Shown here: piece by piece, positions 6,165 to 53,950 of the stretch
How positions within the stretch are numbered: the first letter of the stretch is position 1
Layout of the letters: the number at the start of each line of letters is the position of its first letter
Assembly (NCBI GenBank): GCA_032128875.1
Contig: JAVLKG010000015.1
Location: 28,346-92,345 of the forward strand
Direction: 5' to 3'
From: Candidatus Melainabacteria bacterium 17Bon1m
GTDB lineage: Bacteria > Cyanobacteriota > Vampirovibrionia > Obscuribacterales > Obscuribacteraceae
Length of the DNA: 64,000 nucleotides
Notes under the pieces: model-generated
Databases searched by the model: none
What the model saw: the letters and a program-made list of their open reading frames with translations, nothing else
Told to the model about the DNA's origin: nothing
Translations under genes and position numbers: made by a program

Positions 6165-6183
6165 ACTGAATTATTATTGCGAC

Positions 6184-31207: not shown

Positions 31208-32272
31208 ATGGAGCAATTCCACAAGTACGACCCCGCTCAAATGCTCGGGCCGAGCCCCCTCGCGAAAGCAAGCGATGAGCTCATCCTGACGCACATGGTT
31301 TCTCCCCAAGTGAAAGCCCTTCTGGGTCCTGTAACCGGAGGTCGAGTCGAACTCCGCGATAGTCAGGCCGGCTTTTTCCCCGGGGACGAAGTGTCGAATA
31401 TCAACGGCAACATCATCAAGGGGCGCGACGGCGAGGCGCTGGTGCGCTTTCCATACGTGTCTAGCCTGTACGAACACAAGAACGGCTGCCTGATCATCAA
31501 GCGCGACTTTGCGAAGATCAAGGTCTTTGCGTGGCTCGGCGACTGGAAATCCGGCAAGGCTGACCTAATCCTCAGCAGCGCTCTTCGTGACCGGCGTTAC
31601 GACGGCACAAAACTCGCCAACGACTGCTCACTGCTCGACTATCCTTACGACGACCCTGTGCTGTCGAAGCGAATGACGGTCAACGGCGAAACCGCCGACC
31701 TCGTCACCGCCGAGACATCGCTGTATAGCTACTTCCCAGGCTCGACCATCGCCAAAAGCGGTGGCGGCAAGCAGCTCGACGCGTTTATCGCCAAACCGTT
31801 CACGTTCATGGACCGGCCCAAACTCTTCCTGCGTTTGTTCAAACGCGCCTGGAAGCTGGACCGTTTTCCCGGGCAGAACTCAATTCCCATCCCCGACGTT
31901 GGCAAACTCGCTCACGCCGGCTGGGAAGCTGTCGCGCGCGAGTGCGGCTTGGACGCTCTTGAGACGTGCCCCAGCCATTACCACGTCACTCTGTGGAACA
32001 TGGCAAAGGGCTACACGTTCTCCTATGCAGAGCAAGAAGCGAACATCAACGCCTTCAAGGCCGGCATCCAGAAGCTCAAGGACAACGGCGTCAGTCTTAC
32101 ACGAGCGCAGGAGGCGTGGGTTTGTGTGCTGAACAGCCTGGAACCGAAGGAGCTGATTCCCGAGCACCTTCGCATGGATACTCCGAAGTGGATTCAGACT
32201 TGTCTGGATCAGGAGTCCATCTGGCTCGTGAAGCCGCTTTCGGCGAAAGCTGCTCAACTGCTCAAGAAGTAA
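31208..32272 (+). CDS. Hypothetical protein, possible divergent GNAT-like C-terminal region
   Basis: Strong codon bias, AAGGAG RBS; PGQ...A...G.D.....P..YH......GY.F pattern. Confidence 0.75.
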   Translation: MEQFHKYDPAQMLGPSPLAKASDELILTHMVSPQVKALLGPVTGGRVELRDSQAGFFPGDEVSNINGNIIKGRDGEALVRFPYVSSLYEHKNGCLIIKRDFAKIKVFAWLGDWKSGKADLILSSALRDRRYDGTKLANDCSLLDYPYDDPVLSKRMTVNGETADLVTAETSLYSYFPGSTIAKSGGGKQLDAFIAKPFTFMDRPKLFLRLFKRAWKLDRFPGQNSIPIPDVGKLAHAGWEAVARECGLDALETCPSHYHVTLWNMAKGYTFSYAEQEANINAFKAGIQKLKDNGVSLTRAQEAWVCVLNSLEPKELIPEHLRMDTPKWIQTCLDQESIWLVKPLSAKAAQLLKK

Positions 32273-32721: not shown

Positions 32722-35064
32722 ATGTACCAGTTAGAAGGCGACAACCAGCAAGCTCTCGCCCCAAACGAGGCTAAAGTTGCCGAAGCAAAAGAGAAAGCCG
32801 CCCAGGGCATGCTCGCTGAAGTTCAAGGCGGTCGCAAAACGACTGCTGTCGTCGATACTGCAGAAAGAGATGCGAATCTGCCTCTTTCCGCAATGATGTA
32901 TTTCGGCGCCATACCGGGAGCTGACAAACCTCCTGAGCCGGTAAAAATGCCGGAAGCGCCAAAGGGTTTTGCAAACAATTTAGCCAAGTCTTTCACTTAT
33001 TCGCTTATACAAGCACCTGTCGATGGTTTAAGTCAGCTCGTCGACAAAAGCTTCGGCTCATCGTGGCAGAAATCACTGCACTTCATGGACGCTCCGGCGC
33101 CAGCGAAATACGGCACATCCGATTGGGCAGCACAGCAAATCGGTGGCGCAGGCGGCATGATCGCGCCTTACTTGCTTTTGCACACCGGTGTTTCAAAAGT
33201 AGTCGGACGCGAAGTTCAAACAGCCAACTCCTTAAGCAGAGCCAATATCGGCAGGTTCGCAGCGCAAGAGTCAGGCATAGCAGCCGTCTCCGGTACGATT
33301 TACGGCGGTGTTTTCACACCGGTAAATTCAGCGTCGCAAGACTTCTGGGGCGACCGCTTCAGAAATGCGGCAACAAGCGGTTTAACATTCGCCACCCTGA
33401 CCGGCAGCTCAATCGGCTTGCAAGGCTTGGGACGCTCTATGAGCGCTCAAGGACGCACAGCCTTCGGCGGCATGCTCCAACACGAAGTCGCTGCCGGCGT
33501 CTTATCGGCAGTGCCGGCTGGTATCGTTCATGCGGACGGCGGTTCGCTTTTGGCAGGCAAGGGCCTGGCAACAGGAAAAGAACGCACAGAAGCAATCACC
33601 ACATTCGCGATGGTGGGCGGCGTCTTTGGCGGCGGTCATCGCTTATTGAACAATTACCGAGCTCGCAATCAAGCGACTGAAACGAACGTTCCTGCAGTTG
33701 ACGCACCAGTCGGAAGCGTGAGAGCCGCAAACGTTTTCATGCTGGGCGAGCGCATCACAAAGCCAAGTGAAGCAGCAAAAATGCCTGAGGTGAAAGGCCT
33801 CACGGAACAGCCAGCCACTGGTGAGACGGCCAACACCGGTACAAAAGCCGAAGCCAATCTTCCGCTTCTCGAAGTCGGCAAGCCAACTACACGCTACCAG
33901 GGCGTTGAACCAAACGCTATCGTCGAAAGAGTCATCGATACCAAGGGCGGCGGCAAAATCGTCATGTTCTCGAATGGCGAAAAGGTCGTCGACATCCCCG
34001 GCGAGCCCATTCGTACACAGAAAGCAGGTGGACACGTTGTCGTCGAAGCACGCGACGGCAAAGTCTCCGAGACTCGCATCAAGAGCCAGATCCCACTTGA
34101 AGAAAAGCCGCTGAACGTAGCCAGCGGCGCATACGAACAAATTGGAAAAGACCTTTCCAATTTCGCAGACCGCCCATTCACACTCGACGGCAGACAATAC
34201 GCTTCGGTGGAAGCTTTCTATCAAGGGCTGAAGTGGCCTGATGCTGCAAAACGCGCAGAAGTAGCAGTACTCACCGGCAAAGAAGCAAAATACTCCGCAA
34301 GAGAAGCACCGAAATCACAAACTTTCGAGTACGAAGGGCAAACATACAAGCTCGGCAGCCCGGAGCATCATCAATTGATGAAGCGCGCTATTCGCGAAAG
34401 CTTGGAACAAAATCCGGAAGTGATGAAAGATTTTGTGGAAACTTATCCACGACCGATCGAGCACAAGACAGGAAGAAGAGAGAATCCACGCTCTGCATTC
34501 CCGGGCTCTGCATTCACTCGCATCCTTTCGGAAATCAGAGCAGAATTGCGTGAGAAGTACGGCATAACCAACGATGCGCCGGCCCCAATCAAACCTGCAG
34601 TCGAGGAAAACATGAGCAAGTCGGTCTCTGAAACTCTTCGCGACGTGGTCAGCTCAGGCAACGCCCCTGAAAGACAAAATCTCGATGTTTACTCGAAAGC
34701 AATGGAAAATTCGCCGCATCGCGTCAAGGAATATGTGACAACAGGCAGTGATTCGGTTGTGATGAAACTGACCGATGGCAATATGCTCAAACTCACAAAA
34801 GAAGGCGAATTGCCCCCGGCAAGATCGTTCGACATGCCCGTTGTAGACAAAGGAACAGCACTTGCCGATCAAATTACCGTCAATTGGTTCATTCAACCGG
34901 AAGCGAAGTCACCAGTTGCACAAGCTGATTTGATGCCATTCTTGCAGAGAATTAGACAAGAAGGCTACAGAATGATTGATCCATCGTTGTCTAATTTAGG
35001 CTATTACAACGGCGAAGTAAAACTGCTCGATCCCTGGGCAGTTGTAGAAATTCCGAAGCAATAA
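32722..35064 (+). CDS. Multidomain effector-like protein: Gly/Ala-rich N-module + NADAR domain + C-terminal minimal protein-kinase-like domain
   Basis: LSNFADRPFTLDGRQYASVEAFYQGLK ... RILSEIR (NADAR, about 34141-34550); GSDSVV..LKLT..IDPSLSNLG..KLLDP (kinase-like, about 34700-35061). Start trimmed to ATG 32722. Confidence 0.8.
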   Translation: MYQLEGDNQQALAPNEAKVAEAKEKAAQGMLAEVQGGRKTTAVVDTAERDANLPLSAMMYFGAIPGADKPPEPVKMPEAPKGFANNLAKSFTYSLIQAPVDGLSQLVDKSFGSSWQKSLHFMDAPAPAKYGTSDWAAQQIGGAGGMIAPYLLLHTGVSKVVGREVQTANSLSRANIGRFAAQESGIAAVSGTIYGGVFTPVNSASQDFWGDRFRNAATSGLTFATLTGSSIGLQGLGRSMSAQGRTAFGGMLQHEVAAGVLSAVPAGIVHADGGSLLAGKGLATGKERTEAITTFAMVGGVFGGGHRLLNNYRARNQATETNVPAVDAPVGSVRAANVFMLGERITKPSEAAKMPEVKGLTEQPATGETANTGTKAEANLPLLEVGKPTTRYQGVEPNAIVERVIDTKGGGKIVMFSNGEKVVDIPGEPIRTQKAGGHVVVEARDGKVSETRIKSQIPLEEKPLNVASGAYEQIGKDLSNFADRPFTLDGRQYASVEAFYQGLKWPDAAKRAEVAVLTGKEAKYSAREAPKSQTFEYEGQTYKLGSPEHHQLMKRAIRESLEQNPEVMKDFVETYPRPIEHKTGRRENPRSAFPGSAFTRILSEIRAELREKYGITNDAPAPIKPAVEENMSKSVSETLRDVVSSGNAPERQNLDVYSKAMENSPHRVKEYVTTGSDSVVMKLTDGNMLKLTKEGELPPARSFDMPVVDKGTALADQITVNWFIQPEAKSPVAQADLMPFLQRIRQEGYRMIDPSLSNLGYYNGEVKLLDPWAVVEIPKQ

Positions 35065-35066
35065 AT

Positions 35067-38000
35067 TTAGTCACGCGGAACAGGAACAGGACCGGTTCCA
35101 TCAATAACCGGCGTCCAGTCATGATTGCGGAAGCGACGCGGCAATCCGAGACCTGTGGGAGACTCGATGAAAGCTTGAATCCAAGGGATATTGTTGTTAG
35201 GACCGCCATACGGCAATATAAGCGCGCTGCGCACATCTGAAAAGCGATACATCGAATTCGACATCATAGTGGTCAAAACGTCTTGCTCATGAGGCGTCAA
35301 ACTGTTGTAGAAGCGGTTGTTCGGGTGGTTAAGCGGCAGATAGGTGCTCGGACTGTCCACCACCTTCACGTTCAGGTGCGGCTTGCCGTCTGCTGGGAAA
35401 AGATTTGGATAATCGGCTTGATTTGTCCATGGATTTTTTCCACCAGGAACATCATGGCGACCCAAAGTTCCAACCGTGATGTCTTGAATGAGCGGCTTGC
35501 CATCCTCCATAAACCGGCTTTGCAAGACACTAAAGACGTTCTTTTGATTTTGATCAAGCAGTTTTGGTATTTGGTGACCACTCATCGCATAGTCATCGAT
35601 AAAAACGAGACGCTTAGTTTTCAGAGATTCATAAAGCGGTTTCAAGCTGTCCGGCACATTCTTCAGTGATTTATATCGAGCCAGAGCACGAATATCATTC
35701 ATCGAAACGAAATTTTCCGGAGTTAGCCCATTCACTTTTCCGTAAAGGTTATTGATCATGTAAGAGCTGCCGCCACCGGCTTCCAAGCCAGTGATAATGA
35801 GCATGTTCTTCGGATCGCCGCCGGGCACAGTTTCCAATATTTTCTTATGCAACTGTGCAGCCTGAGTCATCATGTCGGCATAGGTATTGACTTGCGTGCC
35901 TTCCATCAAAAGCCTTGCTGCAAGCCGTTGTTGCTCAGCGTTCATTTTTCCGAGAAAGTTCTCAATTTGCTGCGGTGTCGCTTGTGGTTCAAATATCTGC
36001 CTGTACAGAGCGTCTGTTTGATAGTCGTTGGCGCCGTGCAAACGCGCAGTATCTGCGGTCAAATCTCTGGCGACTCGACCACCTGTTACTTCGTTTGAGT
36101 TAACAACATGCGCATTGTCAAACTGTTCTCTCACTGTCTTGGCATACTGCTCGCGCAGCAGTTTGGCGGCTGCATCCGAATCGCTAATGCCTTCAGCGGC
36201 TTTTAGACGATTGATCTCGCCAAGCATCTGACCGATTTTGTCTTTGACGGCGCCGTTGTTGCCGGTCATCTGCGCGATTGACAGGTCGTAAATGTTTGGA
36301 CCTCTGGTAAATCCATCCATATCTGCAACAAGCAAATTCTTCACACTGGAAAGGATTTGACGTTGCTCTGGTGTGGCGTTTGCAATATTGTCGAAGAACA
36401 TCACGTTGTTGAGATTGTATTCTTCCCTCAACGAATTGATGCTGTCCTGCTGCTTCTGAATCAACTCGCGCGTGGTTAATTTCTTGCCGGGCAGAACCGC
36501 ATCGAGGTCCCCAGCAGCTTCCTTGGTAAATTTAGCGATTGCATCCTCGGCTGCTTTGATTTTTACGGCTGCTTCCTTGATTCTCAAAAGCTCGGCGCCG
36601 GTCAAAATGCGGACGTCTACATCAAGTCCGCTGTTCGCTCTGAACAAATGAGCCAAACCATTGCCATCACTTGCACCATCCAGAGTGAAGACAGTTGCTG
36701 TGGGAGGGCCACTTTCTTCAGTGAAGCCGCGCGAACGATTGCGCCAACTCCAACCATCAATCTTCTCCGCCTGCTCACGCAAGGCTTCCATGCGCTGATT
36801 GATAGCCTTGTTGGACATGTTCGGTCCAGACTGCTCCATCAGTTCACGCACAATCTTTTGCTCGTCAGCGGTGAGCTTACGGGTGACGCCGTCGATAGTG
36901 TAATCGCCGTTGAATAGGTCGTTGAAACTCTCTTTGGTGATTGGGCGATTGCCAAACTTCGCGCTTATCTGCTCGGCAAACTCTTTGAGTTCATCCGGTC
37001 GCATCAAACCGCTAGGGGCATCTGTAGTGGGTCGAAGCTGCTCGCCTTCTCCCTCACGGCGAGTCGGTGGTGCCTCTGCGTCTTCTTTGGGTTTTACCTT
37101 CTCATCAGGTGTTTCAGTGCGACGCACGACAGACGGATTGGCGTCGACAACCGGCTCATTAGCTACGCGCACAGGTTCTACACCATCGCGTCCAGGAACG
37201 ACAGGTTGCTCAACTACAGGTTCATCCATACGTGCACGAACGAATGTTCCGTCTTCATGAGGGACTACTCTTTGCGCAGGCAAGTTAGCATCAGGTGTGC
37301 CGCGCACAGCAACCTTAGCTCTTGCTCCCAAGTCCTCTAGGGTAGACGCGGCACTTCTCACATACGGACTGGCTGCCGTCCAACCTTTTCCTGCCACGTG
37401 CATGCCAGGGGCCAGCACCCATGTACCCACGCCGCCGCCCAAGCCACCAAATGCGGTAGAAGTAGCAGCCATCTGCATAAATTCCTTGAAGTCGCGAGCC
37501 TCTGCGCCAGCCCGCATAGTTCCGGACAAACCGCCGCCCGCCATACCGGCAAGTACATTATCCGGGGTGCTCTTAATCAACTGCTTGAGAAATGTGCGAC
37601 TTTGCTCTTCCATAGATTCGGCAATGGACTTCTTGAGCATTTGCGCAACGGCCTGCTCTTGTCCTTCCTTAGAAATTTGTTTGGCAAGAATACCAATTGC
37701 TTCATCTGTAATCTTGCCACCCTGCGCAAGTCCTTCTTTGACGAGGGTCGCGGCACCTCTTTTGAGAGCGGCTTCACCACCTTCTTTAAGCAAATGCCGT
37801 CCACCAAGAAACAGTACTTTGTCTGCTGCACTGGTGGCAACGCCGGCTCCCAGGAAAGTTGTAAAACCATCGGCGAAACCGGTCGCCCCATCAAGGGCCA
37901 CCTGACTGCTTCCCCAATCGTAGTCACCGCCCATGATGGCGCCTTTGGCTCCAACTTTAAAAACAGCCGCCGCAGCGCCAGTGTAAGCCAACAACGACAA

Positions 38001-41000
38001 ACTGACGCCACCCGTAAAGAAAGCGCCACCAACAGCTCCAGCCGCAATGGCTGTATCGACGACCGCATCCGCCAATGCTTCTTTAGACGACGCGTGCATG
38101 TCGACCATTTTGTAGACATTGTCGACGTACTCCCGCATTTTTGCCGGGTCTTCAACCATCTTAGCGGCTAGCTGGTTGACTTCATTGTCCAATTGATAAC
38201 CAGTGCCATCCCAGGCACGATCTACAAACCCACTGCCAAAGCCGGATCTTGTCGTAGCTGCGTCATTAAGTGCATAGAGGAATTCAGAACGAGCATCTCT
38301 GCCATTAACCTGACGAAGCGCTTGACGTTGGTCTTTACCGCCCAATTCGGAAACCAAATCAGCCGAAAGATCGGAGCCATATTTGCGGGCGTATTCGTCT
38401 CTTACCTTCTGAATTCTTTGCTGAATGACCTGGTCGATTTCAGCTTCCGTCTTACCTTCTGACTTCAACTGAGTACGATCATTAAGTGCAGCCAGCGTCT
38501 CTCTTATCTCTGCTTCACTCGTCCCGAGCCCTAGTTGGTATGAGCGCAGTTTGTCTTCAGGACGCATCTCGCCCTGTTCCATGGAAGCAAGAGCGACTTT
38601 GCGCTCATCTTCGCTAAGGAAGCCCATGACTCGCTCCTGGAAGCGTTTGTCCGTGAGAATTCTTTGTCTTTCGGCAGCGCTGGCACGCTGAATATCTTGA
38701 TACGCGCCCTGTTCATCGTCGTTGAACACACCGTTATTGAGATCCATCTGCAACTCTACGGAAAGCTTGCCGGTTTCAATCAGCGGCTTGGCATACTTTT
38801 CATAGTCGGAGCTGCCCATGGCACGGCGAGCGGCGTCTTTAAAATTCTCGGAGAAAGCCTTATCTTCAGGCGTTTGCGGATTGGTGATGCGGTCGCGCAT
38901 CTTCGGATCTTTGTCGAACGCGCCCTGTATATCTCTTATGACTTGCGCTTCGTCAGAATCGAAATAAGATGCTTGCAGATTGAGTTTGTCGAGAATTCCC
39001 ATCTGCGGTTTTTCGCCGCGCTGGACTTGTTCTAGCAATCCGAAGGCGACTTTCTGTTCGCTAGGATCAAGTGATTGCTTGAGTTTTGCGTCCAGATCGT
39101 CTTTGAACTTTTTGTCTGCGTCGCTTGCACCCGGCTCGCTGGCGCGTTTGTACTGAGCACGCTCGTTATCTGTCATGTTTTCGAGCGTTTTATAGATTGC
39201 AGCTTCGTCGTTGTTGTACCAACGTTTATTGTCTTCGATAGCGTCAAGAACCGGTCGACGCTCTTGTTTGCTGGCATCGTAAGAGGTCGCGTTCTTTTTG
39301 TCGGTGATCACCTTCATTGTGCGATCGAATTCTTCTTGGGAAAGATAGGTCTTCAATACCTGTTCGATCTTGCCGATTTGCGCTGGATCGTTCTTTAAAC
39401 GATCCCAGTCTTCTTGAGACATGTTCTCCACTGTGGAGATCACATCCTGCATACTCGAGTCATAGATATTGCCACGATGGTTGGCGAGCTGAGTGACGAG
39501 CGATCCGCCTTTTTGCGTGATCATGTCTTCCCATTTCGCGAGTTCGTTTATTTGCGAATCACCGGAGAACCATTTACCGGCGGCGGCTTTCAACTGTTCG
39601 TGTGTTTTGGTGTAATAGTCGAGAGCCTTCTGTTTGTCCGATTCTGAAACAGGTGTTTCCAGCGTTTGATTGTTGGCGATGCGCTTGCCTAAAGCGTATC
39701 TGTCGCGCTCTTCCTTACTCATGCTGGCGAGAGAATGTTCGATGGCTTCTTCGTTGTCGCCTAACCAACTTCTGTTGTCTGTTACTTGAGTGGCAACAGA
39801 GAGCTTGCCGTACTCGGCATAGTCTTGAACATGCCGCAATTCGGTGTCAGTAAGATTGCCGCCGGTCAGGAAGTTGAGAACACCGCCTTCAAATTTCTTT
39901 TTGAGTGTGTCTTTACCTTCGCCGTTTGTAAAGTAGTCTCTGACTTCTTTCGGCGCACGACGCATTGATTCCTGGAACATCTCAGCATTGCCGGCATTGA
40001 CGGCGTTGAGCGCCAATTGTTTGGTTTCTTCCGGCGTGCGGTTATCGTGCCCTTTGATATAAACCTTGGCCGAGTCTTTGGTTGCAGCAGAAAGATTCGG
40101 ATCGTTTTGAATTGCGTCGTTCAGTCCATGTCCATAGCGACGACGATACTCAGCGTCTGTCTGCGCGATTTCCGCAGCACTCATTGTCTCAAGAGTATTG
40201 CGAACAATCTTCTCAAGCTCGGAATTAGAACGCCCGAATGTCTCACCACGTTCTACCAAAGCTTGCCTGATTGTGCCTGCATTGTCAGCTCCATCAGGGC
40301 GATTGAGCAACGACATTGCCTTCTCAAGGTCGGAGCCTTTCATTTCATCGGCAAATTCTTTCTCCAAATTCCAATTGGCGCCGTACTTTGAAGCATGCTT
40401 CTTGTCCCAGATGTCCCTTATCATCTGTCTTTCGGCAGCAGTCTTGTTTTCCAACGTGGCATAAACAGTATCTTTATCAGTGCCAGCGCCCCACATGAAT
40501 CCTTCGTTCATTGCGGTTTCGAGAGCATCGGCAGCGGCTTCCATTGCTTTGTAATTGACGTCCTGGCGAGAACCATCCATCTTGCGCCACTGCTTGTTGC
40601 CCGCTGTGTCTTCCTGATAGTAGGTTCCGTCTTTCTCGACTTTGACGGTCCCTTGCCATTTGGAGCCGTCTTTGGTGTTCGTCCAATTCTTTCCGTCTTT
40701 TGTTTCCCAAGAAGCATCGCCTTCGGTCATTCTATTGACGTTGCCATCGGCACCATAAGCAAAGGTGCGCTTCACGCCTTTGGAATCGAGAGTTTCAACA
40801 ACTTGGCCGGCTTTATTCTCGACTCGATAGACACCGGACAGATCGCTGCGCCTGGTGTTGCCGTCTAACTGTTTGGTGACGACGGTATTGTTTTCAATGT
40901 AATTGTAGTTACCGTCCGGCGTTACCCAAGCAGCGCCTTTAGACTTGTCGCCTTTATTCGACTCCCAATTCTCGCCATCTTTGCTAGTCCAGACTTTTCC

Positions 41001-42863
41001 GTCTGCTTCTTTGATTTCAGACAGTTTGCCATTGGTGCCATACTTAAATTCACGCACCTGATTGTCGGCTGATTGTGTGCGTACGACGCGACCTTGTGGG
41101 TCAAAACTTACTTGGCTGCCGTCCTTGTTTTTGACTTCGAAGCCTTTGACTTTACCGTTATCGCCATACTCAAAACGAGTACTGGAGCCGTCTGCGTTGT
41201 CGGCTCTCTGGATGGTAGAGTTTTTGTCGAACGTCAGATTGCGTCCATCTGTGGTTCCAATCCTGCGATTACCTGTAGCGAGATCGTTTTCTTGATACGT
41301 TCCATCAGGTCGCACCAAAACGTTCATCTTGCGAGTTTGGTTGCTGCCTTCCTTCGTCCAGTTAGTACCGTCTGTAGTGCTCCACTTCGCGCCGGTGCTC
41401 TCAGTTACTTTTGAAATTTTGCCGTCTTGACCGTAGTCAAACTGGCGCCAGGTGCCGTTGGATGCTTCAACGCGCGAGATCCGGTTGTCTTTGTCGACTG
41501 AGATAGTCGACCCGTCCGGCTTGAAGACGCGCTTGCTGCCGTCAGCCGAAACTTCGCGATAGAGACCTTCTTCATTCGCCTCGAGCCGCCCTTTCCAGCT
41601 CTCTTTGGTCTTTTCATTGGTCCAATTCTGCCCGTCTTTGGAGGTCCAAGTGCCGGTAGAGTCGGTCATTTTGCTCATGCGACCTTGATCGTCGTACTCG
41701 AATTTTCTTGCCTTGCCTCGGGCATCAACAATTTGAGTGACTTGATCCAGTGCATTCTTGGTGACTTGCGAGCCGTCACGATTGGTGCGCTCAAGCCGGG
41801 TCTTGTCGCCTTCTTTGACTTCGTTCCAGCCGTCGCTGCGTTTTGCAACTTCCTTGCCGTCTGGGTATTTCTCGCGCACCGTACCGTCAGCATCAACCGA
41901 AATTTCAAGTTTTGCAGAATTCCTTGTGCCTTCTTGTTGCCAAGTTTTGCCGTCTTGTGTGCGCCAAACACTACCGTCCGGTTCTTGAACACCATTAAGC
42001 TTTTTGTTGGCGTCATAGGTGAAACGCCTTTCTGCGCCCGCCTTGTCTTTAACCGCGACGACGTTGCCGTCCTTGTCTCGCGAAACAGTCGAGCCGTCCA
42101 TTTTGAAAGTGGTCGTCTCGCCGCGAGCGTTCTTGACTGTCTGTGCGCCGTCTTGCGCCACCGATATTTCGCCCGAGCGATTTTGCCGCGTTTTCTCATT
42201 CGTCCAATTCTTACCGTCGCTGCTGCGCCAGGTAGAGCCATCCGGCTCGACAATTGAAGCCAGCCTGCCGTCGCTTTCATAGCCGTATCCGCGCTTGGCA
42301 CCGGAGGCATCGATAGACGCGGTAACACGATGCTTCTCATCAAACAACAACTGCGTGCCATCGTTGTTCATGCGCTTCGTTTCGTTGCCGTTAGCATCAA
42401 GCATGCTGACGCTGCGGTCAGGATTGCGCTTCATCTGCCTGCCGTCAGGCATAACCAGCGTATAAGTGCCGTCTTGTTCGAACTTCACGTCTTTGACGGG
42501 GATTTTCTCGCCAGTTTGTTTCAAAATAAGAGACTTTCCGTCCGCCGAGCGATTCCACTCGGTGCCGTCGGTTTCAGTAATGCGCACGACATTCCCGTTG
42601 GCGTCTCTTCCCGCGTTTACCGTGTAACCACTTTCGCGTTTGAAAGCCTCGGTCTGCTGAATCGCATTGGGATCCGCAAGTTGCCCAAGCAACGCTTCCT
42701 GACTCGGAAGTGATGCAATTTCCTCACGTTTTGCAGCGGCGGTTCTGGTAAGTTGCTCGAGCCCCTCAACTGCCTCATTGGCGGCGTGATCCTCTTCCAC
42801 CTCTTCCGGCGGATCCTCAATGCGAGACTCTTTCTTAGGTTGAGCTTCTAAGGGCGTAGACAC
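35067..42863 (-). CDS. Giant 2598-aa protein: YD/RHS-like beta repeats, annexin-like repeats, Gly-rich hydrophobic segment, C-terminal PRTase-like domain
   Basis: F.YD..G.l..v.E.DG..W.S.DG..W repeats (about 42620-40570); GTD/DE..I...L....ER..Y annexin-like units (about 40545-38320); AIAAGAVGGAFFTGG..; RLVFIDDYAMSGHQ and PYGGPNNN near the C-terminus. Confidence 0.85.
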   Translation of the reverse strand: MSTPLEAQPKKESRIEDPPEEVEEDHAANEAVEGLEQLTRTAAAKREEIASLPSQEALLGQLADPNAIQQTEAFKRESGYTVNAGRDANGNVVRITETDGTEWNRSADGKSLILKQTGEKIPVKDVKFEQDGTYTLVMPDGRQMKRNPDRSVSMLDANGNETKRMNNDGTQLLFDEKHRVTASIDASGAKRGYGYESDGRLASIVEPDGSTWRSSDGKNWTNEKTRQNRSGEISVAQDGAQTVKNARGETTTFKMDGSTVSRDKDGNVVAVKDKAGAERRFTYDANKKLNGVQEPDGSVWRTQDGKTWQQEGTRNSAKLEISVDADGTVREKYPDGKEVAKRSDGWNEVKEGDKTRLERTNRDGSQVTKNALDQVTQIVDARGKARKFEYDDQGRMSKMTDSTGTWTSKDGQNWTNEKTKESWKGRLEANEEGLYREVSADGSKRVFKPDGSTISVDKDNRISRVEASNGTWRQFDYGQDGKISKVTESTGAKWSTTDGTNWTKEGSNQTRKMNVLVRPDGTYQENDLATGNRRIGTTDGRNLTFDKNSTIQRADNADGSSTRFEYGDNGKVKGFEVKNKDGSQVSFDPQGRVVRTQSADNQVREFKYGTNGKLSEIKEADGKVWTSKDGENWESNKGDKSKGAAWVTPDGNYNYIENNTVVTKQLDGNTRRSDLSGVYRVENKAGQVVETLDSKGVKRTFAYGADGNVNRMTEGDASWETKDGKNWTNTKDGSKWQGTVKVEKDGTYYQEDTAGNKQWRKMDGSRQDVNYKAMEAAADALETAMNEGFMWGAGTDKDTVYATLENKTAAERQMIRDIWDKKHASKYGANWNLEKEFADEMKGSDLEKAMSLLNRPDGADNAGTIRQALVERGETFGRSNSELEKIVRNTLETMSAAEIAQTDAEYRRRYGHGLNDAIQNDPNLSAATKDSAKVYIKGHDNRTPEETKQLALNAVNAGNAEMFQESMRRAPKEVRDYFTNGEGKDTLKKKFEGGVLNFLTGGNLTDTELRHVQDYAEYGKLSVATQVTDNRSWLGDNEEAIEHSLASMSKEERDRYALGKRIANNQTLETPVSESDKQKALDYYTKTHEQLKAAAGKWFSGDSQINELAKWEDMITQKGGSLVTQLANHRGNIYDSSMQDVISTVENMSQEDWDRLKNDPAQIGKIEQVLKTYLSQEEFDRTMKVITDKKNATSYDASKQERRPVLDAIEDNKRWYNNDEAAIYKTLENMTDNERAQYKRASEPGASDADKKFKDDLDAKLKQSLDPSEQKVAFGLLEQVQRGEKPQMGILDKLNLQASYFDSDEAQVIRDIQGAFDKDPKMRDRITNPQTPEDKAFSENFKDAARRAMGSSDYEKYAKPLIETGKLSVELQMDLNNGVFNDDEQGAYQDIQRASAAERQRILTDKRFQERVMGFLSEDERKVALASMEQGEMRPEDKLRSYQLGLGTSEAEIRETLAALNDRTQLKSEGKTEAEIDQVIQQRIQKVRDEYARKYGSDLSADLVSELGGKDQRQALRQVNGRDARSEFLYALNDAATTRSGFGSGFVDRAWDGTGYQLDNEVNQLAAKMVEDPAKMREYVDNVYKMVDMHASSKEALADAVVDTAIAAGAVGGAFFTGGVSLSLLAYTGAAAAVFKVGAKGAIMGGDYDWGSSQVALDGATGFADGFTTFLGAGVATSAADKVLFLGGRHLLKEGGEAALKRGAATLVKEGLAQGGKITDEAIGILAKQISKEGQEQAVAQMLKKSIAESMEEQSRTFLKQLIKSTPDNVLAGMAGGGLSGTMRAGAEARDFKEFMQMAATSTAFGGLGGGVGTWVLAPGMHVAGKGWTAASPYVRSAASTLEDLGARAKVAVRGTPDANLPAQRVVPHEDGTFVRARMDEPVVEQPVVPGRDGVEPVRVANEPVVDANPSVVRRTETPDEKVKPKEDAEAPPTRREGEGEQLRPTTDAPSGLMRPDELKEFAEQISAKFGNRPITKESFNDLFNGDYTIDGVTRKLTADEQKIVRELMEQSGPNMSNKAINQRMEALREQAEKIDGWSWRNRSRGFTEESGPPTATVFTLDGASDGNGLAHLFRANSGLDVDVRILTGAELLRIKEAAVKIKAAEDAIAKFTKEAAGDLDAVLPGKKLTTRELIQKQQDSINSLREEYNLNNVMFFDNIANATPEQRQILSSVKNLLVADMDGFTRGPNIYDLSIAQMTGNNGAVKDKIGQMLGEINRLKAAEGISDSDAAAKLLREQYAKTVREQFDNAHVVNSNEVTGGRVARDLTADTARLHGANDYQTDALYRQIFEPQATPQQIENFLGKMNAEQQRLAARLLMEGTQVNTYADMMTQAAQLHKKILETVPGGDPKNMLIITGLEAGGGSSYMINNLYGKVNGLTPENFVSMNDIRALARYKSLKNVPDSLKPLYESLKTKRLVFIDDYAMSGHQIPKLLDQNQKNVFSVLQSRFMEDGKPLIQDITVGTLGRHDVPGGKNPWTNQADYPNLFPADGKPHLNVKVVDSPSTYLPLNHPNNRFYNSLTPHEQDVLTTMMSNSMYRFSDVRSALILPYGGPNNNIPWIQAFIESPTGLGLPRRFRNHDWTPVIDGTGPVPVPRD

Positions 42864-44646: not shown

Positions 44647-45576
44647 ATGACTAAAGTTCATGAAAGACCAGTAGAACCCTTCTCCGACATTCACTTCGAA
44701 CACGGAGAAGTGAGAGCGACACTGTTGCATGATCCGACAGTGGAAGGCATGGACATGGCGCTCTACCTTGATGGTTCGGGCAGCATGAGCGACGAGTACG
44801 AAAACAAAGCAAAATCCGAGACCTTTCTCGATTGGCTATTCGGCAGAAAAACTGTCATCCAAGACAACGTCGTAGAACCGCAAGCACGCTGGATACTCGA
44901 ATATCTCGCCACAAAAGATCGCAACGGCTTCTTGCGCGTAGCCTATTGGGCAACCGGCACGGCAGGCTCGATTGAAGTGATCGGAGAATTGCAGGGCAAA
45001 GACGTTCACAGCTACAAATTTCCTGGTCCAAAGAAATTCGGTAATCAAACAAATTTGAAACCGGCGATAGAAGATTATGTTGAATATTTGGAAGAGCAAA
45101 TGCAACACGGCGCTCGTCGCGGATGCGCTGTGTTCATCACCGATGGCGTCATTCACGATGCTCACGAAGTAAAATCCTACTGCGAATATCTCGTCAAGCT
45201 GATGAAGAAGGGCAAGCTGCCGAAGATGAACTTCATTCTTGTCGGCGTCGGCAAAGACGTTGATGAAGAGCAAATGGAAGACATCTGCCATGAGGAATAC
45301 GAAGGCTTTGGTCACCTATGGTGCCACCGTATCGCAGAAGAAGTCAACCAAGTCGCTGAGCTTGTCGCGGTTCTCGTCGACGAGAGCATGACCGTCGCAT
45401 CCGGAGGAACTATCACCGACGACAAAGGTCGCGTATTGGCTCGCTATGAATCGCGTCTGCCAGCCGTTCTCGAATTCAAAGTGCCGGAAGGCATTCATAG
45501 CTTCACGCTTGAAGTCAATGGACAAAAATTCACGCAACCGCTTCCGGACGAAGATGACGACGATGATCATCACTAA
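44647..45576 (+). CDS. vWA (MIDAS) domain protein, paralog 1
   Basis: LYLDGSGSM (DxSxS), T.L.PA, FITDG, FILVGVG; HLWCHR; acidic/His tail DEDDDDDHH. Confidence 0.85.
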   Translation: MTKVHERPVEPFSDIHFEHGEVRATLLHDPTVEGMDMALYLDGSGSMSDEYENKAKSETFLDWLFGRKTVIQDNVVEPQARWILEYLATKDRNGFLRVAYWATGTAGSIEVIGELQGKDVHSYKFPGPKKFGNQTNLKPAIEDYVEYLEEQMQHGARRGCAVFITDGVIHDAHEVKSYCEYLVKLMKKGKLPKMNFILVGVGKDVDEEQMEDICHEEYEGFGHLWCHRIAEEVNQVAELVAVLVDESMTVASGGTITDDKGRVLARYESRLPAVLEFKVPEGIHSFTLEVNGQKFTQPLPDEDDDDDHH

Positions 45577-45722: not shown

Positions 45723-46679
45723 ATGAGTCACAAACACGAAACTATCGTCAAGCCATTTTCCGACGTTCACAACAAAGGTGGAAAAATTCTCGCCACCTTG
45801 CTGCATGATCCAACGATCGAAGGACTCGATGTAGCGCTGTACATGGACGGCTCCGCCAGCATGGAAGACGAGTATGGACCGCGCGGCGTTCTTGCCAAAC
45901 TTGGCGGCGTGCGCAATCAAGTCGAGCCGCAAATGCGATGGATGCTCGAATATCTGGCAACCAAAGATAAAGACGGCGTTCTGCGCGTCGCTTACTGGGC
46001 AACTGGAGACGGTTCTGAGCTTGAAATTGTCGGTGATCTCACCGGTGTTCAAGCAAAAGAATACAAATTCCCCGGACCCAAGTTCTACGGCAAAGGCACG
46101 GTTATGTTGCCGGTCTTGCGTGACTACGTTGCGCACATCAAAAACCACAGCGACAAGCACATCAAGCGCGGTCTCGCTGTAATCATCACAGACAGCCAGA
46201 TCTACGATCCAGACGACATCAAAGCGTACTCTGCACAAGTCGCCAAAGAGATCGAAGCGGGCCGTTTGCCGAAGATCAACTTCGTGCTCGTGGGCGTCGG
46301 CGAGCAAATCGATGAAGAACAGATGGAGGAAATCTGCCACCAAGAATATCCCGGTATCGGACACCTCTGGTGCCACCGCATCGCCGACAAGATGGAAGAG
46401 ATGGCAGAGTTGGTCGCGGTTCTTGTGGATGAAACAATGACCGTCGCATCGGGTGGTGTCATATACGATGACAAAGGCAACGTGTTAAAACGTTATGAAA
46501 CGCGCTTGCCTGCAGTCATGGAATTCACCGTTCCTGCTGGATGCCAAAGCTTCACACTGGAAGTAAATGGTGAGAAATTCACCCAACCTATTCCAGAAGA
46601 GGACCACCATGACGACGATGATGACGATGACGATCATCAACCGCAGGTTCAGCAAGCAAAAGGCGGACACAAACACTAA
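45723..46679 (+). CDS. vWA (MIDAS) domain protein, paralog 2
   Basis: LYMDGSASM, IITDS, FVLVGVG, HLWCHR; clearly collinear with 44647-45576; tail EEDHHDDDDDDDDH...GGHKH. Confidence 0.85.
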   Translation: MSHKHETIVKPFSDVHNKGGKILATLLHDPTIEGLDVALYMDGSASMEDEYGPRGVLAKLGGVRNQVEPQMRWMLEYLATKDKDGVLRVAYWATGDGSELEIVGDLTGVQAKEYKFPGPKFYGKGTVMLPVLRDYVAHIKNHSDKHIKRGLAVIITDSQIYDPDDIKAYSAQVAKEIEAGRLPKINFVLVGVGEQIDEEQMEEICHQEYPGIGHLWCHRIADKMEEMAELVAVLVDETMTVASGGVIYDDKGNVLKRYETRLPAVMEFTVPAGCQSFTLEVNGEKFTQPIPEEDHHDDDDDDDDHQPQVQQAKGGHKH

Positions 46680-46784: not shown

Positions 46785-49517
46785 ATGAGTAAGAAAAAGG
46801 ATCAAGGTTCGTCACAGTCATCGCACGACCACGGCGAGCACAAGCACGGACCTGGCTGCAATCACGATCATGAGCATGAACCAAAGAAAGAGGAGCACGT
46901 CCACGGTCCCGGTTGCTCGCACGGACATGACCATGAGCACGAACACAAGCACGAAGATAAAGAACACGTCCACGGTCCAGGCTGCTCGCACGGACATGAC
47001 CATGAGCACGAACACGGACACGACTATGGACACGGTGGATGCGGTCACGACCATGGACATGGGCACGACCACGATCATCACCACGAAAAAATTGACTACG
47101 ACAAGCGCAGACGCGAAGCGCCAATGACGACAAAAGCAGCTGAAACAGGCGGTTCAGCATGCCAGATGGAGCTGGATGTCGTCATTCCCGGCGAGGAAGA
47201 TGAAGTTGGAAGATTCGAACAATTAGAAAAGGAACTCGAAATGTTCATCGGCGTGACCGATGTTCACGTCCGAAAAGACGGCGATTTTCCGGAAGTCTGC
47301 ATTCACTACACGCCAGAAAAAGTTTCACTCGAAAAGTTACGTGACGCGATCAATTCAATCGGCACAGCGGTCAGCAAGCGCTATTTACAGCACACATGGT
47401 TTGTTCGAAACATGGAATCAGCGCAATGCGGATACGTAATCGAGCACTCCTTGCACCGCATGCCTGGAATACTTTCAGCCAACGTCGCATACGCAGCAGA
47501 ACGTCTGGTAGTTGAATACGACCGCGAATTGACACGGCCGAAACAGATCAACAAGCGTATCGAACTTCTAGGCTACGAGCTGGAAGAGCCAGAGAAAGGT
47601 CATGCGTGTTCTTTCCATGCACACGGCAACAGCGGGCTGGCTCCAAAGATTCAAATGCCACTCACAATTGCGGGCGGAGTACTCTTGGTGGCTGGTTTCG
47701 GCTGGCAACATTTGGTTAATCCGGCGGACATAGTCGGCGAAGTGCTTATGTTTCTCGCCATGGTTTGCTCTGGATTCTTCCCATTCAAAGGTGCGCTAAG
47801 CTCAGTCAGACAGGGCGTTTTCAGTATTGAAACATTGATGGTTCTCGCAGCAGTGGGAGCAGGACTCACTGGTGCTTTTTTTGAAGGCGCTTTCTTGTTG
47901 TTCCTCTTCAGCATGGGTCACGCACTGGAACACCGAGCAATGGACAAGGCGCGAAACGCGCTCGATGAGCTCGGCAAGCTGCGTCCACAGAATGCACTTG
48001 TCAAAAAGGGCAATGACATGGTGGAAACACCTGTCGCAGAAGTCCAGCGCGGAGACATTGTTGTAGTCCGACCAGGGGACAGAGTTCCTCTAGATGGAAC
48101 CATAAGATCAGGCAAATCCTCACTTGACCAAGCAACAATCACAGGTGAGTCTGTACCAGTCGCAAAACAGGTTGGTGATGAGGTTTTCGCTGGCACTATA
48201 AATACTGACAGCGCACTCGAAGTCGAAGTAACAAAACTATCTTCAGAGTCTATGCTTGCAAAAATTGTTGACCTCGTGTCGGAAGCAGAAGCACAAAAGG
48301 GTGCCAGCCAAAAGTTCGCACAAAAGGTCGAAAGGACGTTTGTACCGATCGTTCTGATCGCAGCTCCAGCCTTGACCGTGGGGCTCATGCTCTGGGGACT
48401 TCCATTGAAATTAGCTGTTCTTCGCGGCGTTTCGCTTTTGGTAGCCGCATCTCCTTGCGCATTGGCGATTGCCACTCCGGCCACGGTACTATCAGCGGTG
48501 GCGCGAGCCGCCAAAGCCGGCATTTTGATCAAGGGCGGAGTTCACCTAGAAACGCTCGGAAACGTAGAAGCCATCGCATTCGACAAGACGGGAACACTCA
48601 CAATCGGCAAACCGAGTCTTGTCAGCATCAAACCGGAAACAGGAATCAGCGAAACAGAACTACTGCAACTCGCTGGTGATGCCGAAATGCATTCCTCCCA
48701 TCCGCTCGCGCTCGCAGTAGTCAACGCGGCGAAGTCACGCGGTTTGACCCTCGGAAACTGCCAAAACTGCGAAGCAGTGCATGGTCGAGGAGTGAAATCA
48801 TCAATTGACGGAAAAGAAGTTTGGGTTGGAAGCGCGTCGCTGTTCGACTCAGACCCGCTTCCGCAGACGATTTCTGATGGTGTAAAGGAATTAGAGAAAA
48901 ATGGACAGTCAATTGTAATTGTCCGCAGCGAAGGCAAATACGTAGGAGTTCTGGGAGTTGCTGACACCGTCCGCAACGAAACCAAAACGGTTCTCAACAA
49001 GCTAAAGCAAATGGGCATCAAGCGCAATGTGATGCTTTCCGGAGACAATCAAACAGTCGCGGAGGCAATCGGATCACAAATCGGAATCGATGAAACACGC
49101 GCACCACTAATGCCAGACGGCAAAGTGAAGATGCTCAAAACGCTGTCTGAATCAGGCGGGGTTGCAATGGTCGGTGACGGAGTCAACGACGCCCCCGCTC
49201 TCGCAGCAGCGTCGGTTGGCATCGCCATGGGGGGCACGGGCTCTGACGTTGCGCTGGAAACAGCGGATCTGGTGTTGATGAGCGAAGGCTTGAGCCGCCT
49301 GCCATTTGCGGTTGAACTCTCGCGCGTCGCAACACTGACAATCAAACAGAATATGTCTATCGCACTTGGGGTAAGTGCGCTTCTCATCGTTGCGACAATT
49401 TTCGACCTCGTCCAAATCTCCAGCGCTGTGGTCTTGCACGAAGGAAGTACTCTGCTCGTCTTATTCAACGGCTTAAAACTGATCAAATTCAAAGGCTCAG
49501 AAGGCAACGTTGCATAA
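46785..49517 (+). CDS. Heavy-metal-translocating P1B-type ATPase, P1B-4 subclass, with His-rich N-terminus
   Basis: TGES, SPC (ASPCAL), DKTGT, HP, GDGVND and HEGST motifs; N-terminal HGPGCxH repeats and two HMA-like domains. Confidence 0.95.
46896..47023 (+). repeat. Intragenic 69-bp tandem duplication encoding [17 protein letters not shown]
   Basis: Near-identical units start at 46896 and 46965. Confidence 0.85.
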
Positions 49518-53212: not shown

Positions 53213-53950
53213 CGAATTTTTCGGAGGGTGGGGAGGAAGGATTTGTTGCTTATTTACTAAGGTCGTTGACCGAATGGAAGCTCGGATGTCAACAACCACG
53301 CAAATCGTACTACTGAAAAGCCCTGAATGCAAGCACAATTAATGGTTTCCACGATTTCAAAACTTCGCGCATCCCTCACGTTCCGGTCACGCAGAAATGC
53401 CAGATGAGAGACTCGCGCAACCAAACATTAGAGACTCGCGCAATTGTGAGCAGCGCTTCATATTGCGCCAAACGCAATTTTTGACACCTCTTCACATTTG
53501 CTTCCATCCCCCTTTGAACGCAGAAGAAGGCATCTGGGTGAGGCTCAAGACACATTAGCAACAGCTAACACAGTTATCGCTAAGCCTTTTTTGGTGCTTT
53601 TTCCTGAGCGTGCTTCTTGATACGTAAGGGAATCGTTCTTTTTTTCAAGCAATCTCGGAGCAATCCAACACAACTAACAATTCAGCATCCATGAGCCGCC
53701 ACTCAAAGCAACTTCGGTTGTCGGATGTGATTCGTAAGTCGTGTTGAGCTTCGCGTGAGCCTTGCTCACCAGTAAGTTGCACAAAAAAACAACGGGTTTG
53801 TCTCGAATTAATTGGCACGGACATTGAAGTGAGTCTGGGCCTCCAACTGGAAAACAAGCGTTGTCGTTCTCGACTTGAGGATGGCTGCGTTTTTTTGCGC
53901 CTTTTGGCGTGCTCACTTCAAGTTCTCTAAATCCCCAAAGGAGGCCAAAT

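Follow-up and report, generated by a model that had tools for sequence, protein, structure and literature searches.

A candidate effector of Obscuribacterales joins a helical N-terminal module to a phage-type NADAR domain and a minimal protein-kinase-like domain

The window analyzed here is a stretch of 64,000 nucleotides from Candidatus Melainabacteria bacterium 17Bon1m. One of its genes (Table 1) encodes a protein of four parts: a Gly-rich helical head, a linker followed by a β-rich stretch, a NADAR domain and a mini-kinase-like domain. The gene is real, and the reading frame given by the earlier note, from the ATG to a stop after 780 codons, stands in the ORF list and in the translation. 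An alternative in-frame TTG start at 32659 would extend the product to 801 aa; in the alignment, the residue equivalent to the ATG is the first residue in four of the seven full-length orthologs (53-100% identity). The first 79 residues are hydrophilic and, read directly from the sequence, have no h-region, in agreement with the earlier statement that a signal peptide is absent. This leader is kept only among close orthologs, most family members starting their N-terminal module (N-module) at residues 3-84. No further copy of any of the four protein parts is found in the 64-kb window.

Only 2 bp separate the stop codon from the end of a convergent gene, which encodes a giant protein with RHS and annexin repeats. 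This neighbor is presented as context only, and no functional link to the gene is claimed. It aligns with P0074, a relative described below, at 42% identity over 1783 aligned columns, and its homologs are located directly upstream of N-module genes at two related loci, L007 and L011. PADLOC analysis of the RHS protein returns only a weak PRTase_III-A match, and it returns no match for the 780-aa protein or for its upstream neighbor. The latter gene is 449 bp away and belongs to no Pfam family.

Table 1. Positions of the gene, its predicted parts and its convergent neighbor in the window
Feature	Position	Strand	Basis or remark
Whole gene	32722..35064	+	780 aa + stop; ORF list, translation
Hydrophilic N-terminal leader, residues 1-79	32722..32958	+	Sequence; no signal-peptide-like hydrophobic stretch
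N-module, residues 80-325, predicted Gly/Ala-rich six-helix bundle	32959..33696	+	AlphaFold2 model; outside Pfam
Linker, residues 326-395, rich in A/T/V/G/E/P	33697..33906	+	Composition; poorly conserved in alignment
β-rich "mid" region, residues 396-455	33907..34086	+	Often N-terminal to this NADAR type
Predicted NADAR domain, phage gp30.3 type, residues 456-612 (Pfam match 476-601)	34087..34557	+	PF08010
NADAR key residues	E497 34210-34212, K504 34231-34233, H581 34462-34464	+	Conserved motif positions
Predicted minimal protein-kinase-like domain, modeled 625-780 (conserved core ~641-780)	34594..35061	+	AlphaFold2, Foldseek
Kinase-like key residues	G675; K690 34789-34791; R701; D704; Q725-P726; D753 34978-34980; N758; D770 35029-35031	+	
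Giant 2598-aa protein: RHS repeats, annexin repeats, weak PRTase-CE match	35067..42863	-	Pfam; convergent neighbor

Judged by sequence, the segment matched by Pfam PF08010 (Phage_30_3; E 1.1e-15, 58.1 bits for a cut-off of 36) is assigned to the NADAR superfamily, phage gp30.3 subfamily. The same part of the protein matches PHROG 652 (E 2.6e-20) and YbiA (2b3w; E 0.0027 with the single sequence, 1.9e-9 with a profile). In tblastn, the matches in 751 phage records (mostly T4-like) are confined to the NADAR part, with ~33% identity over the domain. The model of DarT1-associated NADARs, PF22397, reaches 15.9 bits and stays under its cut-off of 27. Residues S479, N480, F486, S495, E497, H581 and R606 are invariant in all 41 sequences of the NADAR clade, while the residue preceding H581, a Glu, is variable among them. 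The spacing of E497 and K504 is that of E88 and K95 of the E. coli C7 NADAR, to which they correspond by motif spacing; PMC11543638 describes these two residues as the catalytic Glu and the phosphate-binding Lys, whose importance was established by mutagenesis. In the last strand, the charged position is occupied by His (H581) and not Glu or Asp, a criterion taken from PMC11125620, which states that this His is the mark of phage gp30.3 NADARs and that the DarT1-associated ones have Asp. The earlier proposal of a NADAR closer to the phage T4 gp30.3 type is borne out by the above-cut-off PF08010 match, with which the phage matches and the last-strand His agree. Because the Glu-x6-Lys motif and the last-strand His are conserved, the domain would be expected to cleave an N-glycosidic ADP-ribose linkage, for example in ADP-ribosyl-guanine on nucleic acid or in a soluble ADP-ribose derivative.

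Phage T4 gp30.3-type NADARs (PF08010, YbiA fold) are the closest known likeness, sharing the Glu-x6-Lys motif, the invariant last-strand His and an above-cut-off profile match. Whereas PMC9503650 and PMC11125620 describe the NADARs of phages and of the YbiA type as proteins standing alone, the domain studied here is chromosomal and lies inside a 780-aa protein, between the helical head and the kinase-like domain. It is reached through a linker to which a Pro/Glu character had been ascribed; the linker is present, but Pro and Glu together account for 13 of its 70 residues. To note, a β-rich stretch, absent from the description in the earlier note, lies between this linker and the NADAR domain. 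It accompanies NADAR in relatives P0012, P0013, P0017, P0019, P0021, P0027, P0039 and P0053, and its sole resemblance, a weak one, is to the Tcp10_C/CPAP G-box (P0027 matches Pfam Tcp10_C; a profile search finds 4bxq with E 0.13).

NADAR is a proven antitoxin of DarT1, and YbiA of YarT, as reported in PMC11543638 and PMC11125620. The protein could likewise be an immunity or antitoxin-type factor, whose NADAR would undo the ADP-ribosylation caused by a toxin, whether this came from its own cell or from competitors. The antitoxins of the DarT1-NADAR (DarTG1) and YarT-YbiA pairs belong to this hydrolase superfamily and probably share their chemistry, the removal of ADP-ribose from guanine, with the present domain; the conservation of the catalytic residues and the giant polymorphic RHS protein adjoining the gene fit this idea as well. 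Such a role is nevertheless improbable. The earlier observation that no DarT gene is nearby holds, since Pfam gives no DarT/ART match in 42 ORFs of the window, a scan bearing mostly on those above ~130 aa. The RHS neighbor was itself considered as an ART toxin countered by the NADAR and was rejected, its last 699 residues containing no ART domain at E≤0.5. Moreover, the gene is convergent with the RHS gene and does not share an operon with it, the PF22397 score is sub-cut-off, and the last strand carries His instead of the Asp or Glu of the DarT1 and YarT partners (PMC11125620). Finally, the 325-aa head and the kinase-like domain make it a large multidomain fusion, unlike known antitoxins.

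The resemblance to phage proteins also suggests that the NADAR part might be a phage-derived counter-defense gene, and the locus a remnant of a prophage or of another mobile element: the best Pfam family is that of phage gp30.3, and the T4-like records and PHROG 652 point in the same direction. We consider this origin very improbable indeed. The window contains no phage genes, tRNA or Rfam element, and the GC content is unremarkable across the region. None of 50,697 phage records is matched by the N-module in tblastn, and in the 751 records matching the NADAR part the alignments leave the mini-kinase residues uncovered. In several MAGs, the orthologs and paralogs have a chromosomal location.

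The segment following the NADAR domain has no sequence match in Pfam, NCBIfam, PHROG or the PDB sequences, including a profile search, and no Pkinase match at E≤1. Its AlphaFold2 model (pLDDT 94.7, pTM 0.87) finds 37 Foldseek matches in the PDB at E≤1e-3. Among the matches listed, all are Hanks-type protein kinases, aligned over 146-211 columns for a query of 156 residues with TMq values of 0.40-0.53, the best being YabT (6g4j; E 7.8e-5, TMq 0.50). The structure search supports the kinase-like fold anticipated from the letters of the sequence. The motifs that had been proposed, namely the Gly-loop G675-S-D-S, K690, D753-x4-N758 and L-L-D770, are found in the sequence and are conserved across the family, their positions being assigned by order and spacing. 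Among 47 family segments, conservation amounts to 45 for G675, 44 for K690, 45 for R701, 43 for D704, 45 each for Q725 and P726, 42 for D753 (plus three with Glu), 44 for N/Q758 and 46 for D770. The catalytic-loop Asn is replaced by Gln in half of the family.

Compared to Hanks-type Ser/Thr kinases (YabT, PknB), the domain possesses the bilobal fold of the N-lobe and catalytic core, with the N-lobe β-sheet, the hinge and the catalytic and Mg-binding loops, as well as the Gly-loop, the Lys, the D-x4-N/Q motif and the DFG-like Asp. Unlike them, it is ~140 residues long and without a Pfam kinase match; its model lacks the αC helix, whose Glu pairs with the Lys in Hanks-type kinases, there being no helix from strand 64-68 to strand 85-91, and it also lacks the activation segment and the αF-αI lobe that binds substrate, the protein ending ~10 residues past the DFG-like D770. 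Because the helix and the lobe are missing, the term "kinase" is used here as a label for a fold and its motifs; going by the model, the domain may bind a nucleotide without transferring phosphate, or may catalyze another reaction. Minimal or atypical kinases of bacteria and phages, with which the domain may be compared, include HopBF1, T7 gp0.7 and Kinase-PolyVal. The clusters Kinase-PolyVal and Phage_T7_kinase are the nearest named ones in a protein-atlas search (0.92), which serves as a lead only. A search by words for mini-kinases existing as short separate proteins yielded nothing beyond a fragment of the 780-aa protein itself.

The association of the two C-terminal domains was analyzed in a set of 156 retrieved proteins, the cassette counts referring to the best 150 of 1339 matches to a query that holds both domains, which favors their co-occurrence. 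With this proviso, 38 of the 46 mini-kinase carriers also possess a NADAR domain. The order is reversed, with the kinase before NADAR, in P0031, P0037, P0038, P0041 and P0042. As the fusion occurs in both orders in many relatives, NADAR and kinase are likely to share a substrate or a pathway, and NADAR may provide the substrate site that is missing from the kinase core. In P0076, an APH/ABC1-type kinase is fused to the same NADAR type, and the kinase-NADAR pairing therefore arose more than once. The same NADAR type is also found, together with a DSPc domain, at the end of the 3626-aa RHS/annexin protein P0074. The NADAR/mini-kinase cassette occurs as well behind other Gly/Ala-rich N-terminal modules. 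By hhalign, the type 3 module is probably related to type 1 (89.6%, E 1.9e-6); types 2 and 4 were not linked to type 1, the probabilities being 0.5% and 0.1%.

The N-module contains 14.6% Gly and 13.8% Ala. Its AlphaFold2 model comprises six long helices joined by short loops (pLDDT 92.2, pTM 0.85). Charged residues represent 8-18% of the helices, and their best 19-residue hydropathy ranges from 0.4 to 1.1. The hydrophobic moment is 0.74 for helix 1 and 0.03-0.37 for the remaining five; of the Gly/Ala-rich amphipathic helices previously described, the Gly/Ala-rich character stands and the amphipathic one does so only in part. Foldseek comparison of the model with the PDB and BFVD yields no match at E≤1e-3, and the weak sub-threshold PDB matches are nearly all polytopic membrane proteins. 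The sequence has no match in Pfam, NCBIfam, PADLOC or PHROG. LPD22, LPD14, P22 gp16 and PT-TG were considered as relatives on protein-atlas scores of 0.86-0.90 and were discarded, since shuffled sequences reach the same range. As modeled, the N-module represents a large N-terminal family with a confidently predicted fold that has no match in the structures searched. Across this family, the best 19-residue hydropathy is ≥1.6 in 10 of 83 members; stable membrane insertion is uncertain, because the remaining 73 are under the usual transmembrane threshold. The N-module could act as a translocation device and could equally be a membrane anchor.

The N-module is present in 94 of the 156 retrieved proteins and is located at the N-terminus in all 94, heading at least 13 Pfam cargo types. 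The earlier note had suggested a search for paralogs with different C-termini, and many proteins that share the N-module but differ in this way are found. Of the 73 module-only proteins that were scanned, 50 have no cargo named by Pfam and 23 do: patatin (5), LOG/SLOG (3), GGDEF (2), GNAT (2), TPR with methyltransferase (2) and Tcp10_C (2), and single instances of zeta toxin, AAA_28, PTP-like phytase/DSP, pentapeptide, LRR, FHA and extensin-like domains. That note had staked its reading on two points, and the outcome is that the domains match NADAR and kinase folds and that the N-module heads varied C-termini.

The 14 related loci identified in a survey all belong to MAGs of the Melainabacteria/Obscuribacterales type, among which paralogs occur several to a genome (4, 3, 2 and 2 loci in four MAGs). 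This survey used two peptide patterns in one collection; the lineage restriction rests on these and the phyletic survey is accordingly shallow. The gene neighbors, here and at the 14 loci, are housekeeping genes, and none encodes a secretion system, chaperone, adaptor or immunity protein; a cognate immunity gene is not found downstream, nor is any small downstream ORF conserved across the 14 loci. Pfam matches to export-linked domains (T5SS, T6SS, T7SS, PAAR, VgrG) are absent from the protein, from the rest of the window and from the neighbors scanned at related loci. The genes being scattered, export is not supported by their context.

These observations bear on another explanation, in which the N-module would stay in the producer as a polytopic anchor or sensor of the inner membrane and the family would consist of membrane-tethered cytoplasmic enzymes. 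The NADAR/mini-kinase protein would then serve the cell at its own membrane, in housekeeping or under stress, for example by detoxifying ADP-ribosylated nucleic acid or ADP-ribose derivatives. The six long helices with their low charged fraction, the integral membrane proteins that make up nearly all of the weak structural look-alikes, and the location among housekeeping genes, away from secretion genes, fit this explanation. The GGDEF, FHA, TPR, GNAT and methyltransferase outputs behind the N-module fit it as well; such cargos are also typical of resident signaling proteins, which counts against an effector role. Conversely, the small number of members reaching a hydropathy of 1.6 is not what an anchor would lead one to expect, and the short inter-helix loops leave little room for a sensory surface. 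The patatins, the zeta toxin, the PTP-like phytase, the LRR and pentapeptide proteins and the many unnamed cargos form a spectrum that fits effectors better, and the same NADAR type terminates the RHS/annexin giant P0074. Overall, a resident anchor or sensor is a possible explanation, if a rather unlikely one.

We favor, with a probability of roughly 0.55, a lineage-restricted modular protein family whose member described here is an effector acting on ADP-ribose marks or signals in another cell. The earlier note had described a delivered effector with an ADP-ribose eraser and a kinase; this is partly supported, in that the domain calls hold and delivery is what we infer. The gene, its domain architecture, the folds, the motif conservation, the variability of the cargo, the recurrence of the cassette and the phyletic pattern are results of the analysis. 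In the proposed mechanism, in which both catalytic activities as well as the membrane interaction, the export and the target are predictions, the head is the ~245-aa six-helix bundle kept across the family, rich in Gly, Ala, Ser and Thr, poor in charge and weakly hydrophobic. It would bring the protein to or into a membrane, either that of a target cell after export or that of the producer. Behind it stands an exchangeable enzymatic or protein-binding cargo, in this case a two-enzyme cassette composed of the NADAR domain and of a ~140-aa mini-kinase that keeps the residues for ATP binding and phosphotransfer. The most probable role of such an effector would be to erase or rewire an ADP-ribose-based modification or signaling process in another cell.

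The topology of the family resembles that of polymorphic toxins (RHS, LXG, MafB), which also combine a constant N-terminal module with swapped C-termini and exist as several paralogs per genome. Also reminiscent of polymorphic toxins is the way in which one cargo recurs, both with different heads and as the C-terminal part of an RHS giant. Unlike those toxins, the family possesses no downstream immunity gene and no secretion-linked, pre-toxin or processing domain; its N-module matches no Pfam trafficking domain, and its cargos are enzyme or repeat domains rather than nucleases or deaminases. Chlamydial Inc proteins are secreted effectors that insert into membranes through a short bilobed hydrophobic segment. 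By analogy, they share with the present family an N-terminal (semi-)hydrophobic segment, soluble domains that vary, numerous paralogs, genes dispersed over the genome and the absence of a Sec signal, whereas the N-module is a predicted 245-aa six-helix bundle and no type III system is seen here. A bolder version of the favored effector reading, which we hold to be unlikely, would make the family a lineage-specific effector system of non-photosynthetic cyanobacteria, namely Obscuribacterales and their relatives, with a semi-hydrophobic six-helix head of new fold that itself inserts into or crosses the membrane of a target and with dozens of exchangeable cargos. One cargo of this system would be a novel type of composite enzyme, in which the ~140-residue kinase core would use NADAR as its substrate-binding lobe and would phosphorylate an ADP-ribose-linked substrate, erasure being coupled to rewriting in the target cell.

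Neither the N-module family nor the NADAR-mini-kinase fusion was found to be described in the openly accessible full-text literature. The N-module family, the mini-kinase-like family and the order-independent fusion of the latter to a phage-type NADAR all lack a description in the libraries and literature searched. The mini-kinase-like domain is very small and retains the catalytic residues while lacking the lobe that would bind a substrate; if the composite enzyme is real, its ~140-residue core would be among the smallest protein-kinase-like catalytic units. To our knowledge, ADP-ribose reversal is so far known from toxin-antitoxin pairs and phage counter-defense. Should NADAR and the kinase-like domain act together, it would extend to a bifunctional cassette. 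The N-module family marks diversified, multi-paralog proteins in an uncultured and poorly understood cyanobacterial branch, and if these are effectors, they would offer a handle on how Obscuribacterales, whose lifestyle is largely unknown, interplay with other cells.

The coding sequence proposed in the earlier note holds, including the lack of a signal peptide. Among 5.8 billion proteins, a word-based search returned seven full-length relatives (identity 53-100%), which makes this a real, conserved gene; a further protein found in the same search, from the MAG of a "Cyanobacteria bacterium", has the N-terminal part alone in common with it. An alternative in-frame TTG at 32659 would lengthen the ORF; the residue matching the ATG is the start in most orthologs. 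Residues 396-455, which the earlier note had passed over, form a stretch that occurs with this NADAR type in several relatives and bears a weak similarity to the Tcp10_C/CPAP G-box. Proteins P0019, P0039, and P0053, retrieved as relatives, combine it with a NADAR without the other parts of the target.

Features of the target gene, the window, and related loci in other MAGs (L005, L007, L011)
Feature	Position	Strand	Remark
Target ORF	32722..35064	+	ATG start, 780 aa
Hydrophilic leader	residues 1-79	+	no signal-peptide-like segment
N-module	residues 80-325		Gly/Ala-rich helical head
Linker	residues 326-395	+	
Beta-rich stretch	residues 396-455 (33907-34086)	+	often N-terminal to this NADAR type
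NADAR (Phage_30_3 match)	residues 476-601		
Mini-kinase	residues 625-780		
Upstream neighbour	31208..32272		no Pfam family; 449 bp from target gene
Downstream neighbour	35067-42863	-	convergent, 2 bp between ORF ends, 2598 aa
Tandem paralogs	13698-15170, 15157-16614	+	GntR-type HTH + class I/II aminotransferase, MocR-like architecture
Adjacent paralogs	44647-45576, 45723-46679	+	no Pfam family above cut-off; first with weak VWA match
Heavy-metal P-type ATPase gene	46785-49517		flanked by both pairs of adjacent paralogs
Adjacent paralogs	49517-50269, 50259-50912	+	no Pfam family above cut-off
Glycoside hydrolase-like	51944-53338	-	464 aa, C-terminal family 75 (fungal chitosanase) match
L005 kinase	5752-7635	-	Ser/Thr protein kinase with LRRs, divergent from adjoining N-module gene
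L007 LRR protein	6590-7780	+	stand-alone, adjoins N-module gene
L011 LRR protein	6537-7721	+	stand-alone, adjoins N-module gene

The NADAR domain is of the phage gp30.3 type, as had been read from its motif. Its sole Pfam match above cut-off is Phage_30_3 (PF08010; E 1.1e-15, 58.1 bits vs a cut-off of 36), while the match to the DarT1-associated NADAR model falls under the cut-off and all NADAR-type matches in NCBIfam are sub-threshold. A PDB sequence search reaches E. coli YbiA (2b3w) with E 0.0027 from the single sequence and 1.9e-9 from the profile. S479, N480, F486, S495, E497, H581, and R606 are invariant in the 41 aligned members of its clade. The E497-K504 spacing is identical to that of E88-K95 in E. 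coli C7 NADAR, where, according to PMC11543638, mutation of these two residues impairs guanine-ADP-ribose hydrolysis. According to PMC11125620, NADAR subfamilies differ in which charged residue the last strand carries: YbiA has Glu, DarT1-associated NADARs have Asp, and phage gp30.3 proteins have His, as does the target (H581). A tblastn search against 50,697 phage records matched 751, mostly T4-like, all confined to the NADAR part.

The mini-kinase has no match in Pfam, NCBIfam, PADLOC, or PHROG, nor any PDB sequence match. Its AlphaFold2 model (pLDDT 94.7, pTM 0.87, 41-sequence alignment) yields 37 Foldseek matches in the PDB at E<=1e-3; all of those listed are protein kinases, among them YabT, CDK11, STK16, PknB, PknG, and the kinase domain of a lanthipeptide synthetase, with TMq of 0.40-0.53 over practically the entire query. 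Across 47 family segments, kinase-type residues are strongly conserved: G675, R701, Q725, and P726 in 45 each, K690 in 44, D704 in 43, and D770 in 46; D753 is Asp in 42, Glu in 3, and Asn in 2, and position 758 is shared equally between Asn and Gln (22 each). The kinase-like reading suspected from sequence holds. The model has no helix at the αC position and the protein terminates ~10 residues past D770; the domain is therefore a catalytic core without a substrate-binding lobe. Its fold and motifs are protein kinase-like, but it falls short of a complete Hanks-type kinase.

HMMER, run exhaustively over 1.84 billion cluster representatives, gave 1339 matches at E<=1e-3, and the parts of the target were mapped onto the best 150 of these plus close orthologs, 156 proteins in all. 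The N-module is the only one of these parts in 72 and occurs with NADAR and mini-kinase in 14, with NADAR in five, and with the mini-kinase in three; NADAR and mini-kinase occur together without it in 24, NADAR alone in 33, and the mini-kinase alone in five. Within this sample, 38 of 46 mini-kinase carriers also harbor a NADAR, a proportion inflated by a query that contains both domains and by a count over the best 150 of 1339. The two are fused in either order, the kinase coming first in P0031, P0037, P0038, P0041, and P0042. That they are joined in either order, and that the kinase has no substrate lobe, suggests a single working unit. An independent kinase-NADAR pairing is seen in P0076 (417 aa), where a kinase of the APH/ABC1 type is joined without intervening domain to this type of NADAR.

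The N-module is N-terminal in all 94 of its carriers in this sample, and what follows it differs, as anticipated. Among 73 module-only proteins scanned, Pfam names a C-terminal domain in 23 and none in 50. These cargos are patatin (five proteins), LOG/SLOG (three), GGDEF, GNAT, TPR with methyltransferase, and Tcp10_C (two each), and zeta toxin, AAA_28, PTP-like phytase/DSP, pentapeptide repeats, LRR, FHA, and extensin-like domains (one each). In the 24 cassette proteins that lack the N-module, the N-terminal regions are different ones, likewise Gly/Ala-rich. A ~330-residue head (P0012, P0022, P0026-P0028, P0031, P0034, P0036, P0037, P0042, P0045, P0046, P0060, and P0164; 14 proteins) and a shorter one of ~150 residues (P0033, P0038, P0040, P0055, P0069, P0073, P0084, and P0100; 8 proteins) have no detectable relation to the N-module, and their cargo is NADAR or NADAR/mini-kinase. 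In another group, of four proteins, the head is a probable relative of the N-module (hhalign 89.6%, E 1.9e-6). An LRR middle region is common to P0045 and P0134, which has the N-module.

The N-module contains 14.6% Gly and 13.8% Ala and is modelled as six long helices (pLDDT 92.2, pTM 0.85, 83 aligned sequences). In Foldseek searches nothing reaches E<=1e-3, the best E being 0.44 in the PDB and 0.16 in BFVD; nearly all of the weak matches in the PDB are polytopic membrane proteins. Charged residues make up 8-18% of its helices, and the best 19-residue hydropathy is 0.4-1.1 as a family mean, 1.6 being reached by only 10 of 83 members; the module thus carries too little charge to resemble the usual soluble protein, and its helices are more polar than membrane-spanning ones normally are. 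This composition suggests an interaction with membranes: the head would target or insert into one, or may instead be an anchor resident in the producer's membrane.

The window is an unremarkable piece of chromosome (FtsH, fatty-acid oxidation, fumarase, P-type ATPase, and sulfate permease genes, among others), devoid of tRNA and Rfam elements. The downstream giant carries RHS repeats, annexin repeats, and a weak PRTase-CE match, with no immunity-like ORF downstream of it. Over 1783 aligned columns it shares 42% identity with P0074, whose 3626 residues comprise RHS repeats, annexin, PRTase-CE, and DSPc and end in the NADAR type of the target. In L007 and L011, a homolog of this giant immediately precedes genes for an LRR protein and an N-module-LRR protein, the stand-alone LRR protein being a paralog of the adjoining C-terminal cargo. 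As the earlier note had it, no DarT is nearby: a Pfam scan of 42 window ORFs, with relaxed settings for the RHS C-terminus, found no ART or DarT domain. In the other loci, N-module genes lie in housekeeping surroundings, and neither a conserved partner nor an immunity-like ORF nor a secretion gene adjoins them. In L006 and L013, a few kb separate homologs of the glycoside hydrolase-like protein from N-module genes.

All 14 loci come from MAGs that bear the label Melainabacteria, Obscuribacterales, Obscuribacteraceae, or "Cyanobacteria bacterium"; two MAGs with the labels Drouetiella and Oculatellaceae account for three of the loci. Two named protein-search matches are likewise Melainabacteria or "Cyanobacteria bacterium", and these relatives suggest the same origin for the window. 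Restriction to this lineage is provisional, since the scan of one-genome-per-species contigs used two peptide patterns only. Four MAGs hold several loci (4, 3, 2, and 2).

Four traits seen here are those of polymorphic effector families: the head stays constant, the cargo is exchanged, one genome can hold several paralogs, and a given cargo recurs behind other heads and as the terminus of an RHS giant. Most cargo is unnamed; the phospholipase, phosphatase, LRR, pentapeptide, LOG, and zeta-type kinase domains make the cargo spectrum a better fit to effectors than to sensors. The logic of a head with swappable cargo and the role of NADAR as an ADP-ribose eraser are already known. The N-module and mini-kinase are absent from Pfam (2025), NCBIfam 20, PADLOC, and PHROGs, and no description of either or of the NADAR/mini-kinase fusion was found in the full-text literature searched; the target is built from two undescribed domain families. 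Family pattern, cargo spectrum, and head composition together favour an effector-like protein, putatively exported, whose NADAR/mini-kinase cassette would act on ADP-ribose-linked substrates.
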